Source: Nemertoderma westbladi
Taxonomy: Eukaryota > Animalia > Xenacoelomorpha
DNA: 64,000 nucleotides
Assembly: GCA_032718475.1 (NCBI GenBank)
Contig: JAUCBJ010007130.1
Span: 35,686-99,685 of the forward strand
Direction of reading: 5' to 3'
Shown: positions 4,608-61,768 of the stretch, one piece after another
How positions within the stretch are numbered: position 1 is the stretch's first letter
Layout: the number at the start of each line of letters is the position of its first letter
The notes under the pieces: model-generated
Databases searched by the model: none
Told to the model about the DNA's origin: nothing
Seen by the model: the letters and a program-made list of their open reading frames with translations, nothing else
Program-made: the position numbers and the translations under genes

Positions 4608-4618
4608 ATAACAGATAT
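4608..4618 (+). promoter_or_regulatory. Non-tRNA primer-binding site of A, complementary to its own LTR (3883-3893)
   Basis: ATAACAGATAT directly abuts the LTR end and is the exact reverse complement of ATATCTGTTAT at 3883-3893; no TGG; repeated at 4677-4687. Confidence 0.7.
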
Positions 4619-17119: not shown

Positions 17120-17195
17120 ATCATCGTTTCCGGAAACATGTAATACAGATAGATCGATAGTCGGTTTAAATAACTTCGATTTACTCGCCCGGGTT

Positions 17196-21090: not shown

Positions 21091-21119
21091 TTCGTCTCCA
21101 TTGAATTTGACGATCTCTC

Positions 21120-25772: not shown

Positions 25773-25783
25773 ATGACTGTTAT
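25773..25783 (-). promoter_or_regulatory. Non-tRNA primer-binding site of B, complementary to its own LTR (26558-26568)
   Basis: Sense ATAACAGTCAT abuts the LTR; exact complement ATGACTGTTAT lies at the LTR position homologous to A's 3883-3893. Confidence 0.7.
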
Positions 25784-27049: not shown

Positions 27050-27055
27050 CTCCTC

Positions 27056-34464: not shown

Positions 34465-34470
34465 CTCCTC

Positions 34471-36972
34471 AGACAACGACGATATACATCAACTTTTTGA
34501 TGAGGAGAATGCCATCAATCTCCTTAAGGAAAGCGAGACTTGGCAAAATCAAGTGAACTTATGTCAACTCCTTCACCCATCTGAGCGAGACGACTATAAC
34601 GACGAGCTTAATGACGTCATTGAACGTTGTAATGCCAAGACTCGGGATGAACATGCCGTGAGATTCTTTACTCAAGAGGTCGTAGAGCCCAACTCCTACG
34701 ATAAGGCCCTATCGGTGGAGGAAGAAAGAGCCAAGCAGATCCAAGCGACAACTACTCGTTTTCTTAAAGATCAAGGTAGGTATGAGATCGGACTTCCTTT
34801 CCGAAAGCGAGAACCAAAGTTTATTAACAACAGACCTTTGGCGGAGAAAAGAATTGCTCAACTACATCGACGCCTTACAGCAAATTCTTCAGCTAAAGAA
34901 ATGTATAAAACACAGTTGAAGAAGTTTATTAGCAAGGGATATGCGGAGCTAGTACCGGAAGAAACCCCTATAACTGAGAGAACGTATTACTTAACTCACC
35001 ATTCCGTTCCCAAACCCGGTAAACCCCATGAAGTACGAGTGGTGTTTGACGGTTCCGCCCTTTATATGGGCCAATCTCTTAATTCTGAATTGTTACCCGG
35101 ACCCAACTTACTTCAATCCTTGTTGGGAATACTTTTAAGACTAAGACAATATTCCATTGCTTTCGCCTCAGATATAGAAGGCATGTTCTTACAAGTCAAA
35201 GCGCTGGATAGGGATCGAGATAGCCTACGATTTTTGTGGTGGCCTGAAGGAGACCTCAATAAGAAACCGGTGGAGTACTGGATGACCATCCAAGCTTTTG
35301 GGATAATCTCGAGCCCTTCAAACGCCTGTTCCGTGGTGCGCACTACTGCAGATGACAACCGAGACGCCTTCTCTAAAGAAGTGATCGACAATATCAAACG
35401 AGACATCTACATGGACGATAATCTGAAGTCCCTTCCATCAGTCGAAGAAGCCATTGAGGTCGCTAAAGGAACGGTAGAATGCTTAAAGAAAGGTGGATTT
35501 CGATTAACTAAATTCACCAGCAACTCCCGTGAGTTTCTGGAGTCAATCCCGGTAGAAGATCGAGGAACAAAAGACCTAGATCTAATAAAGGATGATCTCC
35601 CAGAAACTAAGACCCTTGGTTTGAAATGGGACACAGAAAGAGATATCCTGTTTTTCCAACTAAAACAGCGAGATAATCCAGTTCGGACTAAACGGATATG
35701 TTTAAGTATCCTGAGCACTTATTTCGATCCATTGGGATTTATTAGCCCAGTTATATTGATTGCTCGGAGTCTAGTACAACAAATGTGGCTTGAAAACCAC
35801 TCATGGGACGATCCACTTAAGGGAGAATTATTAAAGAAATGGATGAAATGGGAAGATTCTCTACCAGCCATCGAAAACTTCATAATTTCCCGTTCATATT
35901 TTGGTCATGTTCTCCCTACGTATTCATATCAACTCCATGTGTTTGGAGACGCCAGCGATATGGGAATAGGTATAGTAGCCTACCTAAGGGTGGAAACTCC
36001 GGACGGAATCAAAGTTGCCTTGGTTACTTCTAAGGCATTAATAAACAACAAGTTGAAAGTTCCTCGAGCGGAGTTAAAAGCGGCTCTATACGCTACAGCT
36101 ATCGGCCGGAATGTAACAGAACAGATCGACTATCGCCTGGAGAAAACTGTATATTGGACCGACGCTTTACTCGTGTTGGAGTATATAACCAATGAAGTCT
36201 GTCAGTTCAGCGTCTTCGTTACCAACAGAGTAGCTATTATACTCAGTCGCACGACGATGGATCAATGGAGACATTGCCCCGGAACGATTAATCCAGCGGA
36301 CATCGCTTCCCGGGGAGCAACCCCACAAGAACTGGTAGATACTCCAGACTGGTTAGGTGGACCCGACTTCCTCTACAAAGAAGAAGAAGAATGGCCTCCT
36401 CATCTTACTACAGCAGAAATTAGACAGGCCAAGGGAGCGGAGAAAGTCAAACCTAAAACTCAGGCGAGTAAATCGAAGTTATTCAAACCCACAGTAGATC
36501 TGTCTGTACTACATACTTCCGGAGACGACGCTTTGGATCAGAAACCCACAGCCACAAATAAACTCGTTGTGGAAATCCGTGATAAGGATTGGAAATCTGG
36601 CATACCTGACATCTCGCAAGGACTCTCACCTCTTCTGCAGAGAGCGATACATCACTACAGTTCTTGGAATCGGCTTTGTAAGGCCTTTACATATTTAAAG
36701 AGATGTTTTCACCATCACTACTCTAGGATGAAAACAAAGGGTGATACCGCTCCAATCACATCAGTGCAGGTCCATGTTATTAAAGACATTCCCAAATATA
36801 AGGTACCCGACAAGTTTCTGAAGGAGAAGATCAGTTATCAGGAGCATGAAGAAACCAACAAACAGATGCTGAGACTCTTACAATGCTATGAAGATTCCGA
36901 TAAGTATTTCCTGTTGTTGAGAAATCCACAGATGCGCTTAAGGGATCGTTTCTCTAGCACAATGATAGATGG
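34471..36972 (+). pseudogene. pol: Element A pol copy 2, RT-RNase H part, interrupted by element C
   Basis: Near-identical to 27056-29557; frame broken at ...STMIDG by the C LTR. Confidence 0.92.
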
Positions 36973-37509
36973 TGTGACGGGATCCAAGAGGGATCCCGAT
37001 TTATCCGGTTGTGGTAATTTAGTCCACGCGTCCCCGCCGTGTATAAGGATGAAATAAAGTGACTGAGTTCTGAAGTTCGGTGTATAATAGGAAGTTATAA
37101 GATATAGATATTGTGAATGTGTACAAGGCGGGATACGGTAACTAAAGTCCCGTGATCCCCTAACTAAACTAATTGGCTGTACCCTACGCTAGCACTGCTG
37201 CACTTGAGATAACTGAATCACTGATTAATAGGTTATTGGTTATATTGCACGGTGGCCTTACTGCTACTCAATCGATGCCGTTCCCCCCTCTGATTGGTTA
37301 ATACCCTTGTTGGCGCCCCGTGGAGTATTCCCGTTAACTCCACCTGTTCTCCTTGGGTTAGGGGTTTGGCCCCTGACCCTCTATTGTGTGCTTCCTTCCC
37401 ATTCTTATTGGGATGGCGCGAGTTGGTTAATTACCCAATCTCGCGGCTCCCAATATTGCTTATCGGCTAATAACTTTATGGGGTGTTGGCGGGATTGAAT
37501 AAGCTAACA
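36973..37509 (-). repeat. 3' LTR of element C
   Basis: Direct repeat of 47088-47624; adjacent to PPT. Confidence 0.95.
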
Positions 37510-38222
37510 CTCCCCCCCATGCTATCTTCCCGGTAAGAAGATAGCATCAACCAAAAAAAGTGCGCTACAATCCCGCTGGATCCCGATCTAGCATCGGGTG
37601 TGGGGTGGAAATCTTTTCTCTCGGAGTCGGCTTTCCGGGCCGCTCCCTCTGGGTATGATAACGCTACCCTTTACGCCTGGCGTCTCATGTCGGGCCGATC
37701 GCGCTCACCTCTTCACGCGATTTTTGTTTCCCCAACACTTTCGCCCTATCTCACCTTCACTCTCACCCTAACTCTCTCATACCCCCGGACCTCCTCGTCC
37801 CTTACTCAGCCTCTCATTCTCCCCCCCACACTAGGATTGCGTTCGCACTCTCTCCGCACTTCACTCTATCACTCTTATTCCGATTCTCAAGTCCACTTTG
37901 ACTGTTTTTATCTCTCCTGACGAACCTCCCCCCCCTCTCGTGCCGCCGCACTCAAGAAGTGTGAAATTGTCAGTTGTCTCGTCCATAGTGCCATAGTCAT
38001 TGTCCCCCAGTCCCAGTAGCTAGTTGAGAAAGGTTGTATGACTATAGTACTTACTCCAAACGTATATATTTTACTGCTAATCACTACGTACGTACATACG
38101 AATTGCACTTATATAGTTATTTGCATTAATTAAATTTATATTTAATAGTTCGTACGTTACATGCGGCGCCTTCCAGGCGCACCACCTCCCAGTCTCAGTC
38201 TCATTCCCTCGCCTCCGGGAAC

Positions 38223-40757
38223 TCATCTGTACCTCCTCACGTCCTCCTCCCTGGCCCGTTTCTTGGTTATCACTGTTCCTCTGGCATCATCCGCTTTCTG
38301 CTTCCGGACCTTCGCTGCCACTTCCTTGCTGATCCCGGTCGTCGGCTCCTTGGGCGCTGGTGTTATTAAAGCCCGATACCGCTTCGCCGGTGGCCCCTCA
38401 GAATGGCCTGGTTGTTTCCCTCGTGTGGCGTCCCATAGGATCATCTTCATTGCCTTTGGTACGTGTTCCGCCAAGAAATCCCTAAACTCCCTCCGGTTCT
38501 CTGGTGTCCACCTGTCCAGGTACCGTTGCGTGTTCATAACTCCGGCGAACGATGCCGCCGTAGCTACCTCTTGATAGGTAAACGGTAACCTTCGCTTTAT
38601 GATTTCCATGTGGGTCTCCTGGTTTATGAGGAAGAAACCCCACTTGAACTCTTGGGCCTTCATGCGCTGGCGCGTCATGGCCCCGACGTCGGCCCACTCC
38701 TCGAACCTCGTGAACTTCTCCTCGTCGCTCATCCAGTCGCACTCGCGTCCGTAGTGTCCCCGAAAGTGGCACTTTGGACATCGGTTATGCAACCGTGGAC
38801 ACGCCCCCATCCTGTGACTTGGTTCTCTACAATAGAGACAAAAGGTTCCCCGTTGGAACCGGTATAGGCAGCTGCTTTCCTGATGGGTCTGTCTCCCACA
38901 GTAGTCGCAGCCGAGTACCAATGTCTCGCGTCCCACCTCGTCCTTCGTCCCAAGCGATCTCCGCCGTCTATGGAGTCGCTGGTAGGCGAACTTCTCTACG
39001 TTGCTCTCCCTGTTTACGTCTATCTCTCCGCCCCTCTCGGGCATCGTCTCCCCGAATACTATCCGTGGTGCCGTCCCCGGTTGCTCGCCCAACCTGATGG
39101 TGCTCCCCGCGAAATCCATCGCCGGCCCCTCGTGCACCCAGGTCCGCTTGCCGGATCTGTTCCAGAAGGCCCTTGCCCCACTGGCCGTCACCACCCTTCC
39201 GCCAACCCAGTCCGTGTCCGAGTGGCCTATCCTTTCGATGGGCGGTATCTCTCCGAATTCGTCGTCGTCGTCCTCTTCTTCCGGTAGCGTCTCCAATCCC
39301 GGTATCCCGATGGATCCACTATGTCCCTTCCCGCCTTGGCTCTCGCCGGTAGCTCTCCATCCCTCTAGCTCCCTTAACTTCCTTGGCAGTTGGTCGCCCT
39401 CGGCGCCCGCTGGTATGGGCATCGTTTGCAACCCCGACGTCGACTGTTTCGGCGATCCCACCGTCCATCCCAATTCTCGTCCTAGAGACTCCCCCGAACT
39501 CCCTGACGAAGTCCAATGAAGCTCGTCTAGACCCGCCTGTTCCTCGAAGCCATAACTCTGTGTCCTGGCCTCCTCTTCCCTCTCCTCTGCTTCTATCCTC
39601 TCCCGTCTGGCGACTTCTTCCAGTCGCTTTGCTTCCCGTCTATCCATCTCTAGCTGCTCCCACCTCTGATACGGTGTATCTGTCTCCCCATCTACCAGAT
39701 GTCGGCTGTTGTAGTACACCGACTCGCCCTTCAGCCCCGGGTGGTCTACCAGACCGTCAAAGGCCACTTTAAAGGCTCTCCTGTAGCTTAGGGGTGATCC
39801 CGATAACAGAAATGCCCCTGGTTCTCTTTCGATAACTACGGTCATGAATAAGTTAAGTAAACTTATCATCATCCAGTCCTCCTGCAGGATATATCGCTTC
39901 TGATATACCTTTATCGCTCCTCTGCGAAACTGATATACCTCCTGCTTTCCCGGTCTCGCTCCCCACTTCAGCGAGTTCGCTAGTTCTGCTCCGTATTCTT
40001 CCCTAAACTTCCCCCAATCCATTGGTTTGTGGCATACGAGCCCCAATAATTGGCCCATCGCCACCGCCCCGCATTGGCCTGAGTTCTCGACCACCCCCAA
40101 TCCATCCGGTGCCGTCATAGCCATAAAGACTTTCTGCATATCCAGGAGGTTGGTGGCGTCCGGACCGATGATCCTCTCCGCGTCCTCGCGAATCGCCGAT
40201 CCCACTTTCGTCGTCGACTTCTCTCTTACTAAGACCTGTACCGCTTTCGGCAGTCGGTCTAATTTCGGCCCGTCCTTCTTCCCATACGTCCCTAAGTCGA
40301 ATAAGAAGATGTCCCCATTTGGCGCTGCCAAATGCAAGAGTATGGTCCTGGCCGACCCTGCCGTTCCTCGTCTCGAACCCGCTTCGTCTTCCACGGTTCC
40401 CTCGTCATCTAGGATCATATATCCTCCTCTGTTGACGGACTCTATGAATCTTTTCCAGTCCTTCCTCGGCGATTCCCTCGGATACTTCGGAATCCCGAAC
40501 TTCGCCTCGTCTCCTTTCACCACGTAGTGGAAGTGTTGGAAGATCGCGTTGTCCAGCGACGGCGTCCCGTAGGTCCCGACCAACCGCTGTTCGTGCGCCT
40601 CCCGGAAGTGATCCTGCAGCGCTCGTGCCGCGTGACCCCTTTCCAACCTCTCGTAGTATCCTCTCGTCTTCTCCTCCGGGTGTCTTTCGGTGAAATCCAC
40701 CAATATTTCTTTTCCTCCTGACTCCGCCTTTCTCTTCCTGACCAGCTTACTCGCCAT
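38223..40757 (-). CDS. Accessory protein of C: DEDDy (WRN/Mut-7/EXD-like) 3'-5' exonuclease, acidic linker, three CCHC knuckles and basic tail
   Basis: ExoI ILDDEG; LLHLAAPNGDIFLFDL; LPKAVQVLVREKSTTKVGSAIRED (ExoII); LLDMQ; ExoIII-like YQKRYILQED; CDYCGRQTHQESSC, CLYCREPSHRMGAC, CPKCHFRGHYGREC; uninterrupted ORF of about 844 aa from the first ATG. Confidence 0.8.
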   Translation of the reverse strand: MASKLVRKRKAESGGKEILVDFTERHPEEKTRGYYERLERGHAARALQDHFREAHEQRLVGTYGTPSLDNAIFQHFHYVVKGDEAKFGIPKYPRESPRKDWKRFIESVNRGGYMILDDEGTVEDEAGSRRGTAGSARTILLHLAAPNGDIFLFDLGTYGKKDGPKLDRLPKAVQVLVREKSTTKVGSAIREDAERIIGPDATNLLDMQKVFMAMTAPDGLGVVENSGQCGAVAMGQLLGLVCHKPMDWGKFREEYGAELANSLKWGARPGKQEVYQFRRGAIKVYQKRYILQEDWMMISLLNLFMTVVIEREPGAFLLSGSPLSYRRAFKVAFDGLVDHPGLKGESVYYNSRHLVDGETDTPYQRWEQLEMDRREAKRLEEVARRERIEAEEREEEARTQSYGFEEQAGLDELHWTSSGSSGESLGRELGWTVGSPKQSTSGLQTMPIPAGAEGDQLPRKLRELEGWRATGESQGGKGHSGSIGIPGLETLPEEEDDDDEFGEIPPIERIGHSDTDWVGGRVVTASGARAFWNRSGKRTWVHEGPAMDFAGSTIRLGEQPGTAPRIVFGETMPERGGEIDVNRESNVEKFAYQRLHRRRRSLGTKDEVGRETLVLGCDYCGRQTHQESSCLYRFQRGTFCLYCREPSHRMGACPRLHNRCPKCHFRGHYGRECDWMSDEEKFTRFEEWADVGAMTRQRMKAQEFKWGFFLINQETHMEIIKRRLPFTYQEVATAASFAGVMNTQRYLDRWTPENRREFRDFLAEHVPKAMKMILWDATRGKQPGHSEGPPAKRYRALITPAPKEPTTGISKEVAAKVRKQKADDARGTVITKKRAREEDVRRYR

Positions 40758-41259
40758 TCCGAACACTACACTCGCTCACCTGTAGGGTGGTGCCTTACCA
40801 AGGCGCAATACAGATGAGTGATGTATTAAGATGTTTCCTACAGTTCGATAATGGCCTACTTTTCTACTTAACTGCGCCTTTCAAGCTTAATTTAATCTAA
40901 TTAATTTCGGAGCTAGTAAATCAGCCTAATTTACAATTTCCGTCCGTTACTTTTATTATGTTCTAGAACGACTTTCTTTGTGTTACCATTATTTTTCGAT
41001 TTTTTTTAGCCCTATTCTATTTATTTTATTTGATTCTACTGTCCTAGTACTTACTACTGCCTATGGATTTATTCTATTCTCTCTCTGATCCATATTCTGG
41101 CCTACTCAGTGGGCCTATGCAGTACAGCAGTATGCGTCGTGTGGCCACACGATTTATCCAGCTGCACTCATATGCCCCCCTCTCGCTACTAACTCCACTT
41201 ACTGCTAACTAATATCTATATCCTATTTTACCCCTTTTACCTCTTACTCTCTCTCTCTA

Positions 41260-43310
41260 ACTAATGGTACTACGTACCCTCTAACTCTAACTCTAACTAG
41301 GTACTACGTACCTACTAGCTCTAACTCTAACTAGGTACTACGTACCTACTAACTCTAACTCTATCGGTACTACCTACCCTCTAACTCTAACTAGGCATTA
41401 CGTACCCTCTAACTCTAACTAGGTACTACGTACCTTCTAACTCTAACTCTAACTAGGTACTACGTACCTACTAACTCTAACTAGGTACTACGTACCTTCT
41501 AACTCTAACTCTAACTAGGTACTACGTACCTACTAACTAACTAACTCTAACTAGGTACTACGTACCTACTAACTCTAACTCTATCGGTACTACCTACCCT
41601 CTAACTCTAACTCTAACTAGGCATTACGCACCCTCTAACTCTAACTCTAACTCTAACTAGGTACTACGTACCTACTAACCCTCTAACTATCGGTACTACG
41701 TACCCTCTAACTAACTAACTCTAACTAGGTACTACGTACCTACTAACTCTAACTCTCTACTAAGTCTAACTAACTCCTACTAACTTTCTACTTCTACTAA
41801 CTCTACTTGACTCCTCTGAGTCTACCAACTCTGCTAACTAGCTCTACTAACTCTACTCCACTAGCTCTAACTACGTGGCGCTTGCGGTGCCCACAACCCC
41901 TTTACTATATGGCACCCTATGTGCCCTCTCTGCTCTACTCTACTACCTGGCACCCTATGTGCCCTCTCTACTACACTACTACCTCTCTAACTCTACTACC
42001 TGGCACCCTATGTGCCCTCTCTACTCTACTCTACTACCTGGCACCCTGTGTGCCCTCTCTACTACACTACTACCTCTCTAACTTACTACCTGGCACCCTA
42101 TGTGCCCGTCTCTACTCTTCTACTCTCTGGCACCCTATGTGCCCGTCTCTACTCCTCTACATCCCCTTTACGTCTCATCGCCTACACGTGACGCTCTGAG
42201 TGCCGGGAGAGTGGGTACGTTAATTATGTGAACTACTACTGACTCTACTAACTCTCTTCTAACTCTACTAACTCTTTTTGTGCCCGGCACCTCTTGTGCA
42301 CGGCACCTTCTAACTCTACTAACTCTCTACGTGGCGCTAACGGTGCCCACAACCACAACCGGTACTACGTACCCTCTTACTAACTCTACCTCTATCTACG
42401 TGGCGCTAACGGTGCCCACAACCACAACCGGTACTACGTACCCTCTTACTAACCTCTAACTCCCACTAACTCTAATTAACATACCCTGCTCTTACATCAA
42501 ACACATCATCACGCCCGTGCCCCACTAAGTTCAGCGCATTCCCTTCTAACTCTAACTACGTGGCGCTTACGGTGCCCACAACCCTCTACTGCTACTACTA
42601 ACACCCCTAACTAGCGGTACTACGTACCCTCTTACTACTCTAGCTCTCTCTACTAGCTAGCGGTACTACGTACCCTCTTACTCTTACTAACTCTCTAACG
42701 GTACTACGTACCCCTTAACTCCTACTCTCTAACGGTACTGCGTACCCTCTAACTCTTACTCTAACTCCACTAACTAACGGTACTACGTACCCTCTAACTC
42801 TTACTCTCTAATCGGTACTTACGTACCCTCTAACTCCTACTCTCTAACGGTACTACGTACCCTCTAACTCTAACTCTATCTAGGTACCACGTACCTACTG
42901 ACTCTCTAACTAACTCTAGGTACTACGTACCTACTAACTCTAACTCTAACTAGCGGTACTACGTACCCTCTAACTCTCTTCTACTAACGGTACTACACGT
43001 ACCCTCCTACTAACTCTTCTACTAACGGTACTACACGTACCCTCCTACTAACTCTTCTACTAACGGTACTACACGTACCCTCCTACTAACTCTTCTACTA
43101 ACGGTACTACACGTACCCTCCTACTAACTCTTCTACTAACGGTACTACACGTACCCTCCTACTAACTCTTCTACTAACGGTACTACACGTACCCTCCTAC
43201 TAACTCTTCTACTAACGGTACTATACGTACCCTCCTACTAACTCTTCTACTAACGGTACTACACGTACCCTCCTACTAACTAACTAACTAACTAACTACC
43301 TAACTTCTAC
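41260..43310. repeat. About 2-kb strand-biased minisatellite/hairpin array inside C, including eight 38-bp tandem units at 42981-43281
   Basis: CTCTAA/CTAA spacers separating GGTAC-TAC-GTACC and GGCAC-CCTAT-GTGCC mini-palindromes; unit CTACTAACGGTACTACACGTACCCTCCTACTAACTCTT. Confidence 0.92.
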
Positions 43311-43336
43311 CTACTCTATTATTTAATTATTTTTAA

Positions 43337-46300
43337 TTAAATAATTATTTTATATTTTGTGCGTGGGAAGGGCGTCTCGCCCTCATTCCCACCCCCCTCA
43401 GTCCAAAACTTTGGACGACTAAAAACTCTCACGTGCCCCTTCTTCCGGTAGGCACTCTCCTGCTGCCCTCCTATACGTCCTCTAACTCTTCGCCACACTC
43501 TCTTCGGTGCCACCTTTGCTGGCCTCCCCCTTCGTATGTGCGCTGGCATTAAAGCCCTCGACGACCCCCGCTCGTCCCTCGGTATACGCGGTGTCTGCCC
43601 GTGCAATGCCCCCTCGCACTGTGTCCGTCCTGCGTGTGTATGCAACACGCCTCCTTCTACTTTCCCGACTCCCTTATGTTTGCTCATGGGCTTCTCTGCC
43701 CCTGGTCTAGTCCTTTCATATCCTCTCCCTTTCCAACACTCTCCGGATCTGTGTCCTTTTACCACACATCGATGACATAGTCCGTTTGCGTCTGTGTAGG
43801 CTACACGATCTCGTTTGGGCAACGCTTGCCAGTACTTGCAACTCCTGGTCTTATGGGTTCCGTCCCGATGTAATTGACATTGGAATCCTGGATTATAGCG
43901 TTTCCTGTATAGTCCTTCACGTATCGCGCTTAGGTTTATATGTACCGATTTAATGTTTTGGTTGTCTAGACTCGGCCTACTGGGTATATTGGGATTGTGT
44001 TTATTTTTGGTGTTATTTTCTTTCTGTCCCTGCCACGGTGTGGCCCTGCTCCCACCTAACTGTGGACTAGCAGTCCCCTGTACGGCCGCGTGTGGTGGTG
44101 ACTGTCCGCACGACCTGCTCTCGTCCAGGGAGTTCGATGTTCTTGCTCCTATCGGGGTATATTGTCGATATTGTGATGGGGGAATGTCACCCTGTCCCCC
44201 CCCGGCCGGTATGTTTGGTACTGGGGTTGATGTTAATACATTGGGGCCCATACGTCTATCTCCAATAACTCCCCCCTCCCCTGGATATATGTTATGTCCC
44301 TGTGTATTATAGTCATGCTGCTGTACCGATATAGGCCTACCTACCTCTCGCCTACCTACCGGTATGTACTCCGCGACTTCCGGGTTTAATTCCGTCGTTC
44401 GCGCTACCCCATCGCCTACTCTATCTCTCCCAGCATGGCCTATAATAGTATGTGCAGTAAGGCCTACAGTATGTCCTGCAGTCTGCATGTGCCCTTCCGA
44501 ACCGAAGTTTATTCTTCGCGAATCTCGAATCTCCCCGCGACTACCGTACTCTCGATCGGCAGCTATATCCCGTCGGGAAGCTTCTCTTCGATCCCCTCTC
44601 CTGTTCTCGTCTTCGTATCTGGTACGTCCTGTACCCCTCTCTTGGCGTGCGGTGCGTTTCTCCGGGGCGACGGCAATCTCCCGAAGTTCGACCCCACTGA
44701 CTCCCTAACTCCATCTCTACTATCGACGGTCCGTTATCCGTCCTCGCACTCCTATCGTTCGTGGCGACACTTCTTCTACTATCTTCTCTTCTTCTCTTTT
44801 CTGTGTAGTATTCCGGCTCGTGAGGTCTCTCGTCGACCTCCCGGTTAAACTCCACTGTTCTTCTTCCCTCTTCTGGTCGGGCTCGACGCTTCGTCTGCCC
44901 TCTCGCGACGTCAACCTGCCTCTCTCTGCTCGATCGCACGCCGCTGGGGATACTCGCAATCCCCCTATTACTCTCCGTCGCCGGCTGTTGCGGTTTACCT
45001 ATTTCGGCCCTCGCATTATCCGCTGACGGCTGTGGGACACTCTCTGCCCCCCCTCTCTCTCTACTAACTTCTCGCGGTGGGGTGTCCGTAGCCCCCCCCC
45101 ACCCGCCACTTCTAACTTCACTACCTCTTACTACACTTCTACACCCCTCTTGTGGGGCATTCTCTGCCCCCCCTCTCTCGCCACTAATCTTATGTGGTGG
45201 GGCGCCCGTAGCCCCCCCCCACCCGCCACATCTAACTTCACTATCTCTCACTTCGTCTCTACACCCCTCTCTAGTCGACGCACTGTCTCTACTACGGCTG
45301 GGTCTATTCACCCCCGCCTCTCTCTCTACTACTGCGTGGCCCATCAGGCCTACTTCGGGTTGGCTCAACCCCGCTTCCTCCTGCCTACCAACTACGTGGC
45401 CTACCAGGCCGCCGTCGGGTTGGCTCAACCCTGCCACTTCCTGCCTACTAACTACGTGGCCTACCAGGCCCTCGTCTGCTGAGTTATGTACGTCCGACAC
45501 GCTCATATTAATAGCACCATTCCCAATATTATTTGTTAAATCAATTAAATTATTAGAATTTGAAACAGGATTATTATTTAAATTATTTAAATTACTTAGA
45601 TCACTACTATTCTCTAGACTTAAATTATTATCCGAATTATTTTGCGGGTTTGAATTGAAATTATTATTTAGAGTATTTGTATTTAAATTTAAATTACTAC
45701 TACCCGGTAAAATATTATTTCCTGTAATAAAGGGATTAGGGTTATTTACTACGGTACTATTAACATTAACTGTCTCTAACGTACTACTACTACACCCCCC
45801 GCCCGTACGGCTACACCAGTTCTGGTTCTCCCGCCCGGTGCCTGTAAGTGGGGGCTCACTCTCTGATATCTCCAACCGCGCCAGTTCTAGTCGGCGCCGT
45901 TTAAGTTTGGCCCGATATTGCGCAAGCAGCGCCAGTCGGTCAAGCAAAAGATATCGCTCACGCTTTTGCTTTAACTCTCTCTCTCCGCACTCTCGGGACT
46001 CTCTCGCAAGCATCCCAGGCTGCCTCGCCGGCTCGCTCTCTATTCTCCCGGTTATTATCGCGATATGCTCCCGCTCTCTACGCTCCTCGGCCCTCTCTCT
46101 ATCCTCCCTTACCAACTCTAATAATGCGGTTTGCTCTCTCAATTGCCCCTCTAACTGTTTCCGCTCTGCCGCCGCCTTTTCTAATTTATACGCCACGCGT
46201 TCACTCTCTCGCACCCTTCTTTCTTTTGCGGAGGATGTAGCAGACTTATCGGTTGCGACGGACTCCCGTCGCCCCTCCGTCCTACTAACTTTCCCCCGCT

Positions 46301-47007
46301 TCCCGGAACTTCCTCCGACCGACGAGACCGAATCCTCGGAGTTAACCTCGGATTCGCCCTCCCCAGGTCTCTTCCAACCCACTAACCTAAATTCCCTGGC
46401 ATCGACTAAGTATGGCCCTATGTACACTACACCAGGCCCCATACCCCTACGTTCCCATAGTTTAAACAGTTCGAAGGCAACCCCTCTCGCTCTCTCCCTG
46501 GCCAGTTCTCCCTGCCCAGAACGCACTAGGTGATCAAAGTATCTGTTCGACTCACCTAGTCGTCTCCTCAGTCTCACCTCGTCTATCTTCGCCCCTCCTT
46601 TGGCCTCTCTCAGTTGCTCCCGGGTCGCGAGGTAGGCCCGTCGAAGTCGATCAGAAACCCCGACGTCCTCGTCGCCGACCTCTCCTCCATCTCTCCGGGT
46701 CCGACGTCGTACCGACGGCCCCACCGTCGCCGTTCCGGTGGACCGTTCGTCGTCCTCGGCCTGTGGCTGACCGGTGACATCGGTATGTCGACCCTCGCTC
46801 CGCGTCGACTCGTCTTTCTCTTCTCTCCGTCTCGCTCTCTCTCTCTCTTGGCTCGACTTCGGGTTCCAGGCCCTCCTCGTCCTGTGCTTCCGGTTCGCCC
46901 GTTATCGATGGCTCCGGCGTCGTGGGCCTGTATCGTTTGGTCGCGGCCTCGCGGATCGTTAGGTCTTCGTCCGGGGTCCGCGTCGGTGTCTCGCCCGATT
47001 CACTCAT
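43337..47007 (-). pseudogene. Gag-like ORF of C, split into three frames (46651-47007, 44541-46724, 43337-44488)
   Basis: Begins just after the 5' LTR; coiled-coil and low-complexity regions; C-terminal CQLHRDGTHKTRSC...LCHRCVVKGHRSGEC resembles Bel/Pao Gag knuckle spacing; apparent frameshifts near 46750 and 44710. Confidence 0.6.
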
Positions 47008-47087
47008 CTCGTTTGCTCGATGGAGTTCGACTAGCTAGGGTGGAGTTCTTTGAGTTTAACTAGGGGCGGCAGCTCGGTTTTAGTTAC

Positions 47088-47624
47088 TGTGACGGGATCC
47101 AAGAGGGATCCCGATTTATCCGGTTGTGGTAATTTAGTCCACGCGTCCCCGCCGTGTATAAGGATGAAATAAAGTGACTGAGTTCTGAAGTTCGGTGTAT
47201 AATAGGAAGTTATAAGATATAGATATTGTGAATGTGTACAAGGCGGGATACGGTAACTAAAGTCCCGTGATCCCCTAACTAAACTAATTGGCTGTACCCT
47301 ACGCTAGCACTGCTGCACTTGAGATAACTGAATCACTGATTAATAGGTTATTGGTTATATTGCACGGTGGCCTTACTGCTACTCAATCGATGCCGTTCCC
47401 CCCTCTGATTGGTTAATACCCTTGTTGGCGCCCCGTGGAGTATTCCCGTTAACTCCACCTGTTCTCCTTGGGTTAGGGGTTTGGCCCCTGACCCTCTATT
47501 GTGTGCTTCCTTCCCATTCTTATTGGGATGGCGCGAGTTGGTTAATTACCCAATCTCGCGGCTCCCAATATTGCTTATCGGCTAATAACTTTATGGGGTG
47601 TTGGCGGGATTGAATAAGCTAACA
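47088..47624 (-). repeat. 5' LTR of element C
   Basis: 537 bp; followed on the sense strand by GTAACTAAA (47079-47087), complementary to LTR positions 47253-47261. Confidence 0.95.
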
Positions 47625-47629
47625 GATGG

Positions 47630-48950
47630 GTTGATACGTGTTGGAGGAAGGTTAACGAATGCCCCATTATCCTTTGATACTAAGTTCCCCATACTCATTA
47701 GAAATCTTGAAATACAAGTCAAGATGATTGTAGATGTTCACAGCAAACTTTATCATGCTGGTAGAGAACGAGTTCTTAGCGAAATTCGAACTCGCTATTA
47801 TTTTTATAAACCCCGTAGAGCTCTGAACCAAGTTCTTAGGAACTGTATACCCTGTAGGAAAGCATTCAGTAGGCCTTTAACACAGAGAGAGGCAGAATTA
47901 CCTAGGGAACGAGTAAGCTTTTATGAACCACCCTTTACTAATACCGGTGTGGATTTATTTGGCCCTATTGAAGTATATCGTGCTAGGACTATAGTCAAGA
48001 GATGGTGTGTAATCTTTGTTTGTATGACTTGTAGAGCCATCCATCTCGATATGGTGAACGATTTATCTACCAACAGCTTTCTATTAAGCTTACGACGACA
48101 GATCGCTCGCTTTGGCACTAGTAACACGATGAGATCTGATAAGGGAACCAACTTCATTGGTGCCAACAATGAAATCAAAGCTTACGTCAAAGATTGGAAC
48201 CAAAGACAGGTGGATGACCAACTACGAGTAACAGCGTCTAGTTGGACCTTCAACGCCGCCGACGCCCCTTGGTGGGGAGGAAGTTGGGAGAGATTAATAA
48301 GAAGCGTGAAGACAGCATTTCATTTTATAGTGCCTTGCCGCGCTTATCTCACCGACGAACTTTTGCGGACGTTAATGGAAGAAATCGCCGCCTATCTCAA
48401 TGAGAGACCGCTTATGCCAGTCTCATCGAGTCCCGATTCCCTGGAAGCGCTAACACCCGTGCACTTCCTACTGAAGAAACCTGTAGCCATGCTCCCACAA
48501 TCGGAAATCACAGACGGAGACGAATACTGCCGACAAACTTGGCAACTCATGCAGTTGTTATCCCGTCGTTTCGCTGACCATTTCGAAAAACATTATCTGC
48601 CCACGCTACAACTTCGAACTAAGTGGTTTGCGCAGCAAGAAAACGTTAGCGCTGGAGACATGGTTCTTATTGTGGATGTAGATCTTCCACGTAAGAGGTG
48701 GCAGACAGGTCGTATCATCGAGACCCACATCTCGGATGACGGTTTGGTGCGATCGGTAGAACTCGTCGTCATGCGACGTAACTTCAAGAAACCGGGAATT
48801 GTCTTCGAGACGCAGCAGCTCAACCGCCCGGTGGGACGTTTATGTTTACTGGAAAGAGACAGAGAACTCTCCGGAAACTATGGGAGACAAGATACTCTTC
48901 CCACGACCACCTCCCTAATCCAACAAACATCTAGGGACTCCACAACTTAA
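47630..48950 (+). CDS. pol: Element A integrase (remainder of pol copy 2)
   Basis: HHCC, GVDLFGP, SDKGTNF, WERLIRSVK, DUF5641-like tail; resumes exactly after TSD GATGG. Confidence 0.92.
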
Positions 48951-50594
48951 CAACGGCTGGAGTGGGTGTGTGACCATATTACTTTATATTTATATTTGTT
49001 TTATTTTTATATTTCTGTATGTATTATTGTGTAATTTTATTTTAATCGTTTTATTTAATTTTATTTAGTAACATGTTATTTTAGTGATCATTTAGTAGAT
49101 TAGTGCAATATATTAGTGTTTATTACGTACGTAATTACTTATAATATATATTTAGTGCGACGGCGAGAAATAATTATTTTTCTCTTTCCTTACTGTCCGT
49201 ATCATATTATAAATACGTGACTACAGTAAGATGAAATATCCGTACTTATTAAAGTACAATAAAGCCACTACTATATTCAAGTATTATTGGTAGGCAGAGT
49301 ATTAGGAATGCAAAGTTCAGATCCTCGTGTCTCGGCTAAACCAAGCTCTGGGTAGACCTTGGAAACGACTTGCCTCTTCACACTGACATTGCTTCGTGCG
49401 ATATTGCTCTCATACCGTATATTAAATAATACATATAGTAGCGTGATGTCCCTTTAACAGTAGCGTATAACGCAAAATAAATCTGTTAAACCCTTTGACC
49501 ATCTGTAATTCTAGTCGATTAAGATATCGCGGCACCCACCGATATACTTGAAAGACAAAATTCTAGAATCAATGGTTAACGTCCCCAGACAAGTTCTGGA
49601 ATAAACTGGTGCCCATCCTAAATATTAATTATTAATATTTACAAAAATCTGTAAAATTCAGATCCTTTAAAATTCTAGCCGATTAAGATATCGTAGCACT
49701 TACCGATACTCTTAAAAGGACAAAATTCCTAGAATCAAGGATCCCAGTCCCCAGACACGTTCTGGAATAAAATTGTGTCCATTTTAATATTAAATAATAA
49801 AATTTACGGGAATAAATTTAAATTCATATATTTCAATGAATTTAATAAATTGTCATTTTATACAATTTATAACATTCCCAAAATTCCATTAATTAATAGA
49901 TCATGGGAGCAGAGATTCACTCTATTAAGTGTATTTGTGTGCGAGAATCTCCAATGTATAGTCAATAGCCGATAAAATTCATAGAATCATGTATAAAGGG
50001 GATATTGACCATTAAAGAATTACTATTAAATAGCATCCCAGATCTGTATGCATGAGAATTACCCTAATTCTACCGCTAGCTTTCCATAATGTCACCATAG
50101 CAACAACCACGCTAGAATTAGAAGTGAGTTAAAAGAACAATAGAAAGCATACCCCATTGAATAGCATAGGGAATAAATAGCGCACTGCTAGTATCCAAGG
50201 ATACATAATAAATACAGTGACATTCTGGAAGGTACTGACTAACGGACAAATGGCCCGAATGTGTGCAGTTTGTTGCAGTTGTGTTGAATTTGTGCGTTTG
50301 TAGGTGAATGTTACTACTAAAGTGTGTTTACAGTAGCGAGTCGCAATCGTGAAAGTAACCCTAACTCTCCAAGAAGAACCTGCAGTACATCTAAGCCTTT
50401 GGGACGGACAGTGAAGTGACTTGTGCCGGTTATCGTTGTCGTTGTGTAGCTACATCGTTGGCGAAAGCACAGCGACGACGGTACATCGGCGCTGAGGATC
50501 TTACACTGTCCGGGGGCAAAAGAGGGGTAGGCAGCGACGCCCGCTAGCCTAATATATATAGACTCATTATAATATTGATAAACTCATAGCAGAT

Positions 50595-53500
50595 ATGACT
50601 GAGTTGATAGAAGATGATCTTGGCATCAGGGAGCGATATACTCTACCTTTACAAGCGTTTGTCGATAGCTTGATACGCGGCGACGCTGGTCCAACTACTA
50701 CGGAGGATGATGGTCGTTATATCGAACCGTCGATCTCCCCGGAGCAACTTACGCGTGAATTGGACTATAGAAAGTTCACCGCTCGCTATACGCATCGTAA
50801 TGGTACGTATATGGACTTCTTAACTACCGGCCACCCTATCAATTTACACGATACGGACGATGTGGATACCGAAAGGGAAATGGTTTTATTTCAATATCAT
50901 ACCCAACGGAATCGGAACGATAAGCCAAGAATAGAACACGAGAACTCTATTCGAAACCGACTCGAAAGAGAAGACGTTGAAGAACCGGATAAACGCAACG
51001 ACTTCAACGATTATCTGGAATTTTTGAGAGAAACATACCTCAATATCGCCAGTCAACAAAATCTCGAAACTCGATATCCTCAAGGTATACATCATGATCC
51101 TATGATAGAACTCAAACGACTCTATTTCACTATGATGTATCTTACCGCCGATCGACCGCTACCTGTTGTCCCAGATAGCTTCGAACAGATGGAGGAATAT
51201 TGTAAAACTGGAGAACGATCACCCGCGTTTCCTCTGCAGGACATGCGTCTTTGGTATTACTGTGACGAATGCCCTAGACCCAATCAGCAAATGGAAAGAC
51301 ATAAACATCCGCGGAGACGTTGCGCTAAACACAGTTTTACACGATATACTTACGGGAGTTTCGAGCAAAACCTGTTCGACGTGTCCCCTGCGGTCGCTCG
51401 ACTCAAGCGATCCTTGAACAAACCGATGATCAGAGTTCCGGAATACTCGGTCAGACCTCCGCATTCCTCAGTTAGACCTCAAACTCTTGACCCTAATAGT
51501 ATCACGGATCCTCCCGAACTGTACTCACTGTTCAAAGATCTAGTGTTACCCGAACAGTTGATCGGTGGCACTCCGGTAATAGGCTCACAAGACATTCGCC
51601 AACCCTATCTAGCTGGATTGGGACGTGGTCATCTAATATCGCCGTTTAACCCATACAACCGTCCCGGCTTCACCTCTATCCAACCCGTTACGGAAGTCGA
51701 AGAGAGCGTCGTACGAAACGCATTAGACGCTATTTGGCAGAAAATCGGAAAGGGAACGTACGATTGTTTGGAGAAGCGTAAATTGCAGCAACAAGTCCAA
51801 GCTGTGAAGGAATTAGCTTTACCCCAGTTCGATAGAGAAATACAAAATCTCGAGGAGGACATCGAACGTGGACGAACCTACTCTTTACAAGAGTTTCTAG
51901 ATGAGCGTCTACAACAACAAGCGGAGGAGAATCAGCTCGAGGAGAGACATATAGAACTGGATGAGAGAGAAGAAGCGGCTTTAGCTCAACCAGAAGCGCA
52001 AATCCTTATGACGGATCTCTACTCTAAAACCATTCTTCATCCCTCGATGGTTCCCCATTTTGGAGACAAACTTTTTGCGACGGCACAACCCCAACCGGTT
52101 GATATCAACCTAAGATCTCGCGATCTTATCGCCGACGCTCCTCTGTTGCAGCGTCCGCCCATCGAACCCGCTCGTGTCGATGGTATACTCGTTGAACCTC
52201 CGGACAATAGAGCAGATCTTGTCCGTCGCATGGTACACGATGTAAACATACGCGCTAGACCTTTACCGGACTCGTTTTATGGGATCAAAGATCACCCTTA
52301 TTACGTCAATCTAAAACAATATTACATGGTAAAACCGGAAGATCCTACACATAGTCTGAAGTTTCTACCGTTAATAAATCCTCTCGATCTTGTCGAACTC
52401 GAACAACTGCAGAAACATCTGGATCAGTTAGTTAAAGTAAACTCGTTTCGAAAACCATATAATGTTTCCAGAATAGAGAAAGAAACAATACCTCCATATA
52501 ATCTTGATGGATTCATCAAAACTCGTTTAGTGCACTGGAATCTTGATGTGTTATTCGAGGAGGAAAGAATACAACGATATGGAGATGTGGAAACATATAC
52601 CACACAATATTTAAAGTATAAAGACCTGCCTAATGCTAGCGAATGTGCTACCTTATGGCATCCTGTGGGAATGACACTCGAAAACGCCACTAAAGAGTGG
52701 AACGAAACTCTTAACGTTATCGAGATGTATGGAGTTGTCACTTACGATAACGAAGGTAGCGTTCCGGTTGGAGAACTTGGAACTACGCGGATGATACACA
52801 TACGAGGACTCGCTGGTTCTACCCACGTATTTACTCGAGCGTGTTCCGACGTTATTGATTATTCTTTTGAAACTCTTACTGAGATACAAAAGAAACTCCG
52901 ACATGGACAATTTGAACTCGCGCAGCGTTACGTCACCGACACCGAGCGCAAGCCGGCTATGGGTCGATGTTCGATGGATCGATGTTACCCCAACCCGTGC
53001 TCGAGATGCTGTTTAACGAAGGAATCCTTAAAATCGGCTCAGCTGTTTATGGAGACCTACAGAACGACTTTTGGAATATGGAGAACATTCCATACCCCTT
53101 CGTTGATACTCAGCTGATTGCTCCTTGGGCAGAAGGCCGAGGTTTCTTCCGCACTACGTATGCCAATACACCCAGCGGAATTACCAAAGTACAACGAACC
53201 TCCATCGGACATCTTGCCTTTCAAGAATACGGATGGAATTTCAAGGTTGGAAATCCTATAAATTACCAACAAGTATACGGAGATCATTATTCTCGTTTAT
53301 ACTTTGATGGACCATTGACCGCACCTGGCGCCGTGTATAGCTTTATGAGTGTTCCACTTCGTCCCTCCTTAGCTATATACACGATCTTTGAAAACGCAGC
53401 ACTTGCCGGTTGGCTAGCCGATGTGTGCAGTCGTACCATACGCGCCCATCCTTTAATACTTGGAACCAAACTCGCCAAGTTAGATGAACACAATAAATTC

Positions 53501-54853
53501 ATCCGCTTTGAATGTTTCAGGCGCTTTCTGACTCCGTTCCGTAACGTGGATAGTCAGTTCAAGGACCGCGCTCTGACCAAACTCAGCCTGAGAGACTCAG
53601 CGGCGGAGAAGCTAAACAGCGCGGGATTTGCCCTTTTTCAGAACGTTTGTATACAGAACTTGCACTCATCTGTTATACAAAGACCCCGAATACCCGCGGG
53701 TTATTCTGTCGTCGGAGTTCAGACAGTGGGTCCGCTTGCAGAGACAGCCGCACCTAACTCAACTATGCAATTGGAAGACGAACCAATATGCTTAGAAGCT
53801 GAAGCGATTCAGCCTATAGCGCCCCGGAGCAGCGATAACGACTACGTCTTAGAGTGGTATCAAGGTTCACAATGTCTCACCGCATACGATTATCGACACG
53901 CTAGCTATGTTTCTCGAAAACGTTGTCGATTATGCGCATCGAGAGACCATTTCACTCCTATGGACTCAGACGTACCCTGCTCCTATTTCCACGATCAACC
54001 AATGATGGAGATATATTGTGCGTATTGCAGACTTAATAACTCTCATATTTTTGCAGTCTGCCCCCAATTTATGACTCAATGCCACCACTGTCAACTTAAA
54101 GGACATGCCAGTTATAATTGCCCCTTTAATCACGATTTAGAGAGCGTAGATGAAATGATTACCCTGCGCTACATTCGAGCTTGGGAAGCGAACGCGGATT
54201 TACATTGTGAGTCCCGTCATCGATACTACCCTGGACGCTCTTACGAGGGAGTTTACGCGTTCCATCCTTATTTATTAGCGTCTGTGGAACAAAAAACACG
54301 CGTACCGAGTTACGAGCTAATGAAGCGTGTTGGTGAGTGTATTTCCACTAAATTTGTTAGAAGATACCTTAGGAACGTCAATCCTAACGATATTACTTCA
54401 TACCATTTAATCAATTATATCCGTCAAGACCCTGAGTATGGCGATTTATTTATCAACTCGCACCCTGAGTTACAGGAAGTATCTCGACGGCCCTACGAAT
54501 ATCGAGCCCGAGAACGCGAGCTGGAAAGAACTATTAAACCAAGGAAGTTTCTTATCACCCACGGTCCGCCTACCGCCATTGCCCAGACGACCCGTCAAGG
54601 ACCCGTAGGAGCTGCTGTCCTGAGGCGCGCCCTAAAGGCTGTTAGACCTCGCTCCACGGAAGTTGATATCGATCAACCAGGTACCTCGACCGGCGGATAT
54701 ACCGATCGCAATCCGAAACCTTCTGATGCAATTGTATTGCACCCTTCACCCAGGAGTTACAGCCCTCCTAGTAAAGTGGCTCGCCCCAAAGAGAAAAGGA
54801 CTCTTACTAGCCTCAAAAAACTGCGTAAACGCCGTCCGCGTAAGAAAGACTAA
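50595..54853 (+). CDS. Accessory ORF2 of A (about 1419 aa, one frameshift near 52830-52970): unknown N-terminal region, DEDDy 3'-5' exonuclease, triple CCHC knuckle, NLS-like tail
   Basis: ExoI VTYDNEG; LPQPVLEMLFNEGILKIGSAVYGD; FVDTQ; ExoIII-like AIYTIFEN; CRLCASRDH..C, CAYCRLNNSHIFAVC, CHHCQLKGHASYNC; KKLRKRRPRKKD end; lies between integrase and PPT. Confidence 0.8.
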
Positions 54854-61480: not shown

Positions 61481-61768
61481 CCGGTCTGCCGGTAGCGGTA
61501 CTTCTCCATGGCATGAGTCAGCAAGTTGATGATTCCGGTTGAATAGGCCTGTTCTGTTTTTGTCGACTTCTGTTGAGATGCAGAGCTGAGCTATCAGCTA
61601 TAGCAACATAGGCCCACTGTAGCCATAAACTGCCATAGCAGCATAGGCCTATCAGCATTATAACTAAAACGTATCGCCAATCTGCCTTTCAATTCAACCA
61701 TCCATCTACAGATCTACATTTGTATTTCGGTAGGCCTATGGAATATGGCAGTAAGGTAGTACAGTAAT

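Follow-up and report, generated by a model that had tools for sequence, protein, structure and literature searches.

A pol-less LTR retrotransposon of Nemertoderma westbladi that keeps a gene for a predicted DEDDy exonuclease with CCHC knuckles

Exonuclease open reading frames (ORFs) in LTR elements, described in rotifers, and pol-less elements with an extra ORF are both already known. The bdelloid rotifer elements Juno, Vesta, and the Terminons, which are rotifer-specific, gypsy-like lineages with pol, carry between pol and the 3' LTR an RNase D-like ORF3 of the DEDDy type whose catalytic residues are kept with an Asp-to-Glu variant (PMC5408684). Among non-autonomous LTR families without pol, TelKA2n of rotifers keeps env (PMC5408684), and RLG_Sabrina and RLG_WHAM of wheat keep gag-protease or novel short ORFs (PMC9744471). 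Non-autonomous elements of Culex that are bounded by LTRs and lack pol have internal tandem arrays, tRNA-type primer binding sites (PBSs), and no coding potential, and no master copy was found for them (PMC3286476). The DEDDy fold is found in the products of the cellular genes for Trypanosoma brucei RNase D (TbRND), EXD2, Nibbler/Mut-7, Egalitarian, and the WRN exonuclease, and TbRND also has a C-terminal CCHC zinc finger domain (PMC7797062). Self-priming is established for the Tf1/sushi chromoviruses, which have no tRNA-type PBS: the bases that directly follow their 5' LTR can pair with a stretch of the LTR itself. In Tf1, the RNA supplies its own 5' end as the primer and folds into three duplexes (PMC4600332; bioRxiv 2022.12.06.519325).

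Element C lies in a 64,000-nt stretch of contig JAUCBJ010007130.1 (assembly GCA_032718475.1), here called the window, together with two BEL/Pao elements, A and B. Like the rotifer elements it contains a DEDDy-type ORF with the Asp-to-Glu variant; unlike them it belongs to BEL/Pao and keeps this gene without pol, and in its protein three CCHC knuckles are followed by a motif that is conserved near the C terminus. It differs from TelKA2n and the wheat elements in that the kept gene is for a predicted enzyme of RNA metabolism, gag is decayed, and no element with LTR ends like its own turned up as a partner. The Culex elements resemble it in being bounded by LTRs, in having tandem arrays and no pol, and in that no master copy was found, but do not have its coding capacity, and the DEDDy proteins named above share its fold but are encoded by cellular genes. 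In searches of an open-access library, neither an exonuclease-knuckle ORF nor self-priming was found described for BEL/Pao. The Caenorhabditis elegans BEL-clade Cer elements are said to have an extra exonuclease domain and Cer7, of the same clade, reportedly uses a self-encoded primer; these reports, if right, lower the novelty of both features.

Structure of element C and the parts it lacks

36973-47624, minus strand: element C, an LTR retrotransposon
47088..47624, minus strand: 5' LTR, 537 bp, TG...CA
36973..37509, minus strand: 3' LTR, 537/537 identical to the 5' LTR
47625..47629 and 36968..36972, no strand: target site duplication (TSD), GATGG
37510..37535, minus strand: polypurine tract (PPT), the purine-rich tract adjoining the 3' LTR
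43337..47007, minus strand: gag-like region in three frames (47034-46654, 46901-44544, and 44704-43340)
43733..43882, minus strand: two BEL/Pao-type gag zinc knuckles, best tblastn E 4.6e-5
41230..43305, no strand: nested tandem repeats, about 2.1 kb, at the expected place of pol

Element C, an LTR element, inserted recently into the pol of A. Its paired LTRs run from TG to CA on the minus strand, a PPT adjoins the 3' LTR, and the element is flanked by a short TSD; as a sequence-only reading had held, they are identical (0 differences over 537 bp) and GATGG stands on both sides. The 5' LTR contains a CCAATCAGAG box at LTR position 213 and TCAGT initiator-like motifs at positions 286 and 294. 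TSD lengths (5 bp in A, 6 bp in B, and 5 bp in C) do not separate the families. The lack of visible DNA similarity to A was borne out in that C matched the rest of the window in a single 22-bp stretch (E 0.16).

The absence of reverse transcriptase, RNase H, and integrase, also claimed earlier, was confirmed by tblastn and by a pol profile, and the protease is absent as well. The 126 BEL/Pao gag-pol proteins gave 11 matches at E<0.05 to the interior of C, none of them to pol or capsid: the gag knuckles accounted for 10, and the knuckles of the exonuclease ORF for the remaining one. A stretch of B used as a positive control gave 213 matches, from 126/126 queries. The pol profile reached a best E of 3.4 on C and 6.5e-207 on B. 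Thus, C lacks the Pao-type PR-RT-RH-IN pol of an autonomous BEL/Pao element (Belpaoviridae), which is present in A and B. The DUF1759 capsid domain was not found in C by a Pfam search, and of the triple Cys-His box that accompanies it in BEL/Pao Gag, C has two knuckles only, the first with a Cys-to-His change. The assignment of these knuckles to BEL/Pao rests on 10/126 BEL/Pao queries in a comparison limited to BEL/Pao gags. The gag-like region is mostly low-complexity and contains neither DUF1759 nor protease; it is frameshifted, as had been stated, by two frame changes instead of the one proposed. The gag remnant, the accessory gene in common with A, and the 5-bp TSD are those of a BEL/Pao-derived non-autonomous element.

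The repeats at the expected place of pol consist of 28-38-bp GGTACTACGTACC-type units and include one fresh 38-bp x 9.3 array, and no protease or pol remnant was found at either edge. Since the non-coding parts of A and B also contain tandem repeats, the arrays of C need not mark an old loss of pol.

The exonuclease-knuckle gene and its homologues

38223..40757, minus strand: intact accessory ORF, 844 aa
39825..40475, minus strand: DEDDy 3'-5' exonuclease domain, about aa 95-311
38631..38909, minus strand: three knuckles, aa 617-673, with the downstream conserved motif, aa 685-709
50562..54853, plus strand: the homologous accessory gene of A, split over two frames

The uninterrupted ORF of about 844 aa noticed in the sequence-only reading is indeed there, from an ATG at 40757 to a stop at 38223. 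It comprises a DEDDy exonuclease domain, a charged helix with a disordered linker, three CCHC knuckles, all of the form CX2CX4HX4C, and, on the C-terminal side, a conserved segment, FE..A..G..T.R.R...WGF. All five catalytic positions are filled (D117, E119, D192, Y289, and E293), giving four acidic residues plus Tyr, with the last acidic residue, the Asp of ExoIII, replaced by Glu; the same swap is seen in 11/41 homologues. The exonuclease of C itself had no direct Pfam match. A profile of the family matches EXD2 (E 1.9e-12), as well as Egalitarian and WRN, and matches TbRND in both parts (exonuclease, 6.1e-8; knuckles, 2e-10). An AlphaFold model built on a 43-sequence alignment has pLDDT values of mostly 80-95 across the exonuclease and knuckle parts; a single-sequence fold (pLDDT 35) was unusable. 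The best Foldseek matches in the PDB were TbRND, Rrp6, Nibbler, and Egalitarian (E 2.7e-5 to 2e-4), which share about 12-16% identity with the exonuclease of C. No solved structure matched the long linker and the FE..A..G..T.R.R...WGF segment, and Atlas gave leads for the knuckle part, all under 0.9. The ORF is therefore predicted to encode a DEDDy 3'-5' exonuclease with an RNase H-like fold and the motifs ExoI, ExoII, and ExoIII, and the predicted enzyme is presumably active.

HMMER retrieved 76 homologues, none of them named, and the names in 19 homologue clusters were uninformative. Word-based searches with the ORF or the alignment as the query returned nothing, which in view of the 76 HMMER matches reflects a limit of sensitivity and not absence. 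The catalytic columns of 41 homologues hold D in 22, E in 23, D in 22, Y in 30, and D/E in 28; the ExoI acidic residues are lost in a subgroup (e.g., P0013, P0030, P0039, P0047, P0060, P0066, P0067, and P0069). No genomic context was found for the homologues by comparing the protein of C and the homologue P0059 with metagenome contigs or the pol of A with viral contigs. Eight homologues (P0004, P0008, P0013, P0036, P0052, P0059, P0061, and P0072) come from records 9-30 kb long.

The motifs reported as shared between A and C are present (KVGSAIRED/KIGSAVYGD and an FE..AD...R.R...WGFF-type motif), whereas the reported match in knuckle spacing holds only partly: in A the second knuckle is one residue longer and the first has a longer H-to-C stretch. 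Nor is the second ORF of A the whole homologue, as had been supposed. The upstream ORF (50562-53117) has ExoI in its last part, and ExoII, ExoIII, and the knuckles lie in the ORF at 52916-54853, with the frame change between about 52830 and 52980. Pairwise BLASTP between A and C detects the knuckles only (E 5e-7); homology of the exonuclease domains is seen by profile (E 1.3e-17). The alignment of the two proteins that had been called for gives 17% identity across 262 profile columns, lower than that of C to most foreign homologues (median, 22.5%), in keeping with the proposal that the gene is old. The proteins of A and C are not sisters in a tree of 34 sequences that is poorly resolved at depth and leaves out 9/41 longer matches (under 570 aa) and all short matches. 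The description of B as an exonuclease-deleted element also held: about 2.8 kb of the accessory region of A is gone from it, exonuclease included.

Complementarity between the leader and the LTR

47079..47087, minus strand: PBS position of C, 9 nt without TGG, all complementary to LTR positions 364-372
47253..47261, minus strand: LTR site of C that can pair with these 9 nt, a putative self-primer (in the 3' LTR, 37138-37146)
4608..4618, plus strand: 11 nt after the 5' LTR of A (3441-4607); exact complement of LTR 443-453 (3883-3893)
25773..25783, minus strand: 11 nt after the 5' LTR of B (25784-27049); exact complement of 26558-26568

In A, B, and C alike, the 10 nt next to the LTR contain no TGG of a tRNA-type PBS. 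In all three, pairing with the element's own LTR starts at the first base after the LTR (11, 11, and 9 nt), and the own LTR is the best match for each leader; for C, 9 nt match its own LTR and 5 nt match when set against A or B. The background frequency of such self-complementarity is 4/15893, 7/13291, and 26/9473 positions. The post-LTR bases of A and B differ at two positions, each compensated in the LTR. Exact pairing with the own LTR, the lack of a tRNA-type PBS, and the two compensatory changes suggest that A, B, and C likely prime reverse transcription on their own RNA, in the manner of Tf1, and not on a tRNA. Because Rfam gave no match in C at E<=1 and the window contains no tRNA genes, no self-encoded tRNA primer was found. 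In predicted folding ensembles, the primer pairing has a probability of 0.64-0.9 in C, of mostly 0.8-1.0 in B, mainly or only provided that the RNA begins at the partner site, and of 0 in A. The LTR match of C is only 9 nt long and is preceded, at a distance of about 75 nt, by initiator-like motifs, whereas in Tf1, which belongs to another superfamily, the primer is the RNA 5' end (PMC4600332; bioRxiv 2022.12.06.519325).

Persistence of element C and the possible role of its protein

Since capsid, protease, reverse transcriptase, RNase H, and integrase are all missing from C, an unseen autonomous BEL/Pao relative likely copies it in trans, and part of the RNA of C itself likely serves as the primer for reverse transcription. 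It keeps one intact gene, whose product would be a knuckle-guided 3'-5' exoribonuclease. We consider this whole account of a recent pol-less element, copied in trans, self-priming, and keeping a predicted exoribonuclease gene, to be probable; the frame-split homologue of A and the deleted one of B count against it. The two frame changes and missing capsid of gag, set beside LTRs with 0 differences, indicate that gag decayed before the last jump. The pol-less form would thus be a lineage and not one accident, and the helper would be an element closely related to C in its LTRs, as A and B are not.

Public contigs from two independent data sets contain many copies related to C. Six X6 contigs run from the LTR end into differing flanks, and one X3 piece within the ORF has 0 differences at a depth of 3650, the low-depth joints of that run lying near 16-17. 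A further set, X5, which may be RNA, has 25 pieces. Among the 40 best supported of 681 variants, which are not independent, 23 fall in the ORF, and 17/23 are synonymous (expected share, 0.23-0.32; binomial P <= 4e-5). None creates a stop, and 0/12 listed indels, of 111, lie inside the ORF. Selection had been proposed to retain the gene in a non-autonomous element; purifying selection among related copies is supported, and it may have acted in autonomous relatives, since only one full copy of C was seen and the contigs (130-750 bp) cannot be assigned to pol-less or pol-bearing elements. Of the 15 listed joints (26 in all), 10 touch the ORF, one being a 544-bp loss of its 3' part (depth, 386 in X1 and 421 in X3). 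Some joints thus delete part of the ORF, and ORF-broken variants exist, some of them multiplied.

On a rival reading, C arose recently by deletion from a BEL/Pao family with pol; its ORF would then be intact only on account of its youth, and the synonymous bias would stem from the autonomous parent. The unphased contigs, the ORF-deleted variants, and the tandem repeats in A and B agree with this, as does the neutral-looking intragenomic variation of extra env-like and GDSL ORFs in rotifers (PMC5408684). A single deletion does not fit the contrast between a gag without capsid and with two frame changes and an adjoining 2.5-kb ORF with none, between identical LTRs, nor were protease or pol remnants seen at the repeat edges; we hold this explanation to be somewhat unlikely.

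The sharing of one exonuclease class by LTR and Penelope-like elements of rotifers is consistent with a role independent of LTR priming (PMC5408684). The protein may trim or degrade small RNAs by which the element is silenced (piRNA/siRNA or the tails of these), a candidate role favored over the two below and given slightly less than an even chance; its benefit in trans would be exploitable by deleted copies. Alternatively, the protein could mature the self-primer, the RNA being cut downstream of the LTR site and the exonuclease trimming the 3' end to the duplex for reverse transcriptase: RNase D-type enzymes trim 3' ends of structured RNA, and pairing ends exactly at the first post-LTR base in all three elements. 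TbRND, which joins the same two domain types, trims guide RNAs (PMC7797062). However, the exonuclease part is missing from B although its self-complementary site is present and its LTRs are 99.4% identical, Tf1 self-primes without such a gene (PMC4600332, bioRxiv 2022.12.06.519325), and the Penelope-like elements have no LTR priming step (PMC5408684), which makes this role unlikely. A pseudo-nuclease that binds element RNA for routing or packaging, like Egalitarian or EXD1, would explain retention by a benefit in cis; both proteins are among the profile and fold matches, ExoI acidic residues are lost in the homologue subgroup, and Glu replaces the ExoIII Asp in C. This is likewise improbable, as C has acidic residues at all four positions plus Tyr and about half of the homologues also keep them despite 20-30% identity.

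A two-part system in which B-type elements give Gag-Pol and C gives the exonuclease, suggested by their reciprocal losses, by the accessory gene family, CCAATCAGAG box, and self-complementary PBS positions common to A, B, and C, and by the cooperative sets of semi-autonomous elements proposed in wheat (PMC9744471), is very improbable: C and B have no DNA similarity, each leader matches its own LTR only, the exonuclease proteins of A and C have 17% identity and do not group as sisters in the tree, the pol of B is itself split over two frames, and B needs no C because its own A-type relatives carry the gene. Partners in wheat are identical in their termini and PBS, and the marks of partnership used there are LTR termini, PBS, and promoter motifs held in common (PMC9744471); of these, C and B share only TGT...ACA at the LTR ends and a CCAAT box.

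Returning to the account of C as a trans-copied, self-priming element, one tentative and rather doubtful extension is a self-priming BEL/Pao lineage with an ancient exonuclease-knuckle gene, in which C would be a many-copy satellite family without gag-pol, a dedicated supplier of an enzyme that, to the benefit of C and its helper alike, disarms host silencing by small RNAs or matures the self-primer. If self-complementary PBSs do covary with the LTR in BEL/Pao elements, priming without a tRNA would have arisen a second time, outside the superfamily of the Tf1/sushi chromoviruses, and it would be clear why annotation that relies on a PBS overlooks such elements. For the role of the retroelement exonuclease ORFs described in rotifers, C isolates the gene as a clean test case, with one intact protein, a predictable active site, natural deletion variants, and 76 unnamed homologues.

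Element C and its BEL/Pao neighbors

The window is animal DNA with nested BEL/Pao LTR retrotransposons, of which two (A and B) carry pol and a third (C) does not.

From 3441, plus strand: element A, with DUF1759 gag, protease, Pao-type reverse transcriptase (RT)/RNase H (RH) and integrase domains
11101-27049, minus strand: element B, with DUF1759 gag, protease, Pao-type RT/RH and integrase domains
36973-47624, minus strand: element C, LTR pair with target site duplication (TSD)
40757-38223, minus strand: accessory open reading frame (ORF) of C, 844 aa

Inserted head-to-head in A, B has a TSD of 6 bp (CTCCTC) and LTRs that are 99.4% identical; its pol runs in two frames, with the switch near 17200, a deletion has removed about 2.8 kb of its accessory region, and the named relatives of its pol, in marine invertebrates and fish, share about 35-42% identity. 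C lies in the pol of A, within the second copy of a tandem duplication of ~7.4 kb (23677-31091 versus 31092-36972 plus 47625-49161; 5 mismatches). Because the first copy holds no insert, the insertion is either very recent or polymorphic; the repeat itself may be a true duplication into which C then inserted, or it may represent two haplotypes assembled in tandem. In the surrounding sequence, 57595-59708 and 55586-56849 duplicate the 5' flank and LTR of A, 58539-59705 looks like a solo-LTR allele (CTACT on either side), the 3' LTR of A ends at 55561 within an ACAGATA repeat, and the splicing factor Cwf18 is encoded by a host gene at 61760-62239 (Pfam PF08315; E, 4.6e-36).

The sequence-only reading had described C as a young element with a frameshifted gag-like ORF, an uninterrupted ORF of about 844 aa, and no RT, RH or integrase, and these points largely held, except that gag changes frame twice. 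Its 537-bp LTRs show 0 differences and GATGG is duplicated at both ends; the interior contains a gag-like region spread over three frames, 2.1 kb of tandem repeats, the accessory ORF, and a purine tract. In tblastn, 126 BEL/Pao proteins gave 11 matches to C, all to knuckles (best E, 4.6e-5), versus 213 on a control stretch of B, and a pol profile reached a best E of 3.4 on C versus 6.5e-207 on B; C therefore lacks capsid, protease, RT, RH and integrase. Since the LTRs do not differ, the loss of the gag capsid and the two frame changes predate insertion. This contrast within C itself, of a decayed gag and an adjoining 2.5-kb ORF that is still open, speaks most strongly for a pol-less lineage, and C likely represents a pol-less family. 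Its gag knuckles, compared with BEL/Pao gags only, and the gene in common with A appear to tie it to BEL/Pao. By eye, the gag knuckle stretch seems to be followed by a second, decayed copy of itself at 43560-43640 (minus). The GC content of C is 0.49-0.59 at 37001-41300 and 44000-47000 (about 0.41-0.47 in A and B), and over the same intervals its sense strand is strongly purine skewed relative to A and B, another sign of a separate lineage.

The retained exonuclease-knuckle protein

The 844-aa protein had no domain match in Pfam. A HMMER search of 1.84 billion representatives recovered 76 homologs at E ≤ 0.001 (4 at ≤ 1e-10), 41 of them 440-1100 aa long; in most of these 41, the exonuclease is followed by a linker, three knuckles, and FE..A..G..T.R.R...WGF. 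None of the 19 homolog clusters checked had an informative name. The family profile matches EXD2 (E, 1.9e-12), Egalitarian, and WRN, and its match to trypanosome RNase D covers both domains. In the Atlas, 3'-5' exonuclease clusters were returned at 0.94, which is no more than a lead, since PF01612 is found on just 34% of cluster members. An alignment-based structure model, confident over both domains, matches Trypanosoma brucei RNase D (TbRND), Rrp6, Nibbler, Egalitarian, and giant-virus exonucleases; the RMSDs are high (mostly 6-12 Å), so that the model gives a firm fold class but a nearest relative that is tentative at best. The catalytic positions in C are D117, E119, D192, Y289, and E293, the last being Glu in 11 and Asp in 17 of the 41 homologs. 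Two well-supported subgroups (P0013/P0030/P0039/P0066 and P0047/P0060/P0067/P0069) have lost the ExoI acidic residues, retain the knuckles and C-terminal motif, and are probably pseudo-nucleases.

A profile built without C detected ORF2 of A (E, 2.6e-24; exonuclease, 1.3e-17; knuckles, 1.2e-10), so the proposed sharing of domains stands; the same profile gave a weak ExoI match (E, 0.4) in the last part of the upstream ORF of A, so that the gene of A is split over two frames rather than contained in ORF2. At 50562-53117, this gene has an N-terminal extension of ~700 aa that has no Pfam match and is absent from the C protein. Aligned, the C and A proteins are 17% identical over 262 columns, below the 22.5% median between C and foreign homologs, and they do not group as sisters in a tree of poor resolution. 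The gene is an old one, as had been suggested, and C is no derivative of A or B. As stated earlier for A, and likewise for B, no DNA similarity to C was found. Semi-autonomous partners in wheat have identical LTR termini and primer binding sites (PBS) (PMC9744471), an identity not seen between C and B; by this standard B is not the helper of C, and the complementation proposed between them is unsupported.

Copies of C and selection on the ORF

Part of the ORF region occurs in six public runs from four studies, none recorded as RNA; contigs from four of seven listed runs were compared with 36700-41240. Two runs (X1 and X3) covered all 30 bins. One X3 contig within the ORF was identical at a depth of 3650, low-depth joints of that run being near 16, which suggests perhaps a hundred near-identical copies, or more, a rough figure since depth is not copy number; in a third run, six contigs extend from the LTR end into differing flanks. 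The ORF holds 23 of the best 40 of 681 variants, and of these 17 are synonymous, 6 nonsynonymous, and none a stop, against an expected synonymous share of 0.23-0.32 (P ≤ 4e-5). None of the best 12 of 111 indels lies in the ORF, which makes up 56% of the compared stretch. Pointing the other way, 10 of the best 15 of 26 joints touch it. A deletion variant lacking the 3' part of the ORF (38200-38745) occurs in two independent data sets, X1 and X3, at a depth of about 400 in each. Across the family, with copies pooled regardless of pol state, the ORF is under constraint, and for some copies it is dispensable in cis.

Priming and a possible role in trans

No TGG follows the 5' LTR in A, B, or C, and neither a tRNA gene in the window nor an Rfam match in C was found. 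The 11 nt at the PBS position of A (4608-4618) are the exact complement of 3883-3893 in its own LTR (shuffle P, 0.001), those of B (25773-25783) of 26558-26568 (P, 0.003), and the first 9 bases after the 5' LTR of C of a site in its LTR (P, 0.0035). Such complementarity occurs at 4/15893, 7/13291, and 26/9473 positions inside A, B, and C, respectively, and the best match of each leader is its own LTR. The LTRs of A and B are 70% identical and differ at 2/11 PBS positions and at exactly both pairing LTR positions; because A and B are kin, the evidence amounts to two lineages and one covariation, not three independent cases. If gaps and G-U pairs are allowed, both 11-nt pairings lengthen to about 20 nt. 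A fourth related LTR (1-1007, minus; 81% to that of A), whose leader falls beyond the window, departs from A precisely where the putative self-primer lies. The chromovirus Tf1 self-primes with the same geometry (PMC4600332; bioRxiv 2022.12.06.519325), and on this sequence evidence we consider it fairly probable that A, B, and C self-prime reverse transcription. RNA folding gave pairing of 0.64-0.9 in C, supported it in B if the RNA starts at the site, and did not support it in A. The pairing could instead be a structural stem, or the primer could be an internal tRNA fragment. Cer elements of Caenorhabditis elegans reportedly contain an exonuclease domain and encode their own primer. Fungal GalEa copia elements have no PBS, yet no LTR complement (PMC5445492). 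In the open-access literature, no report of a BEL/Pao exonuclease or self-priming was found, including in passages from PMC9094657, PMC554778, PMC13524379, PMC3601003, and bioRxiv 2025.09.22.674508.

DEDDy ORFs are known in LTR elements (PMC5408684; reviewed in PMC6431247), as are pol-less families that are coding (PMC9744471) or noncoding with tandem repeats (PMC3286476). Like C, the rotifer family TelKA2n is pol-less and retains a coding region, in its case env (PMC5408684). C would depend on an unseen relative for the packaging, reverse transcription, and integration of its RNA, and the accessory protein may bind RNA through its knuckles and trim 3' ends with its exonuclease, by analogy with TbRND, which trims guide RNAs at their 3' ends (PMC7797062). 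Rotifer LTR and Penelope-like elements have this exonuclease class in common (PMC5408684), and the exonuclease is missing from B and from some variants of C. On these grounds, our ranked guess is that a trans-acting aid, such as counter-silencing, would fit the role of the protein better than an essential priming step.
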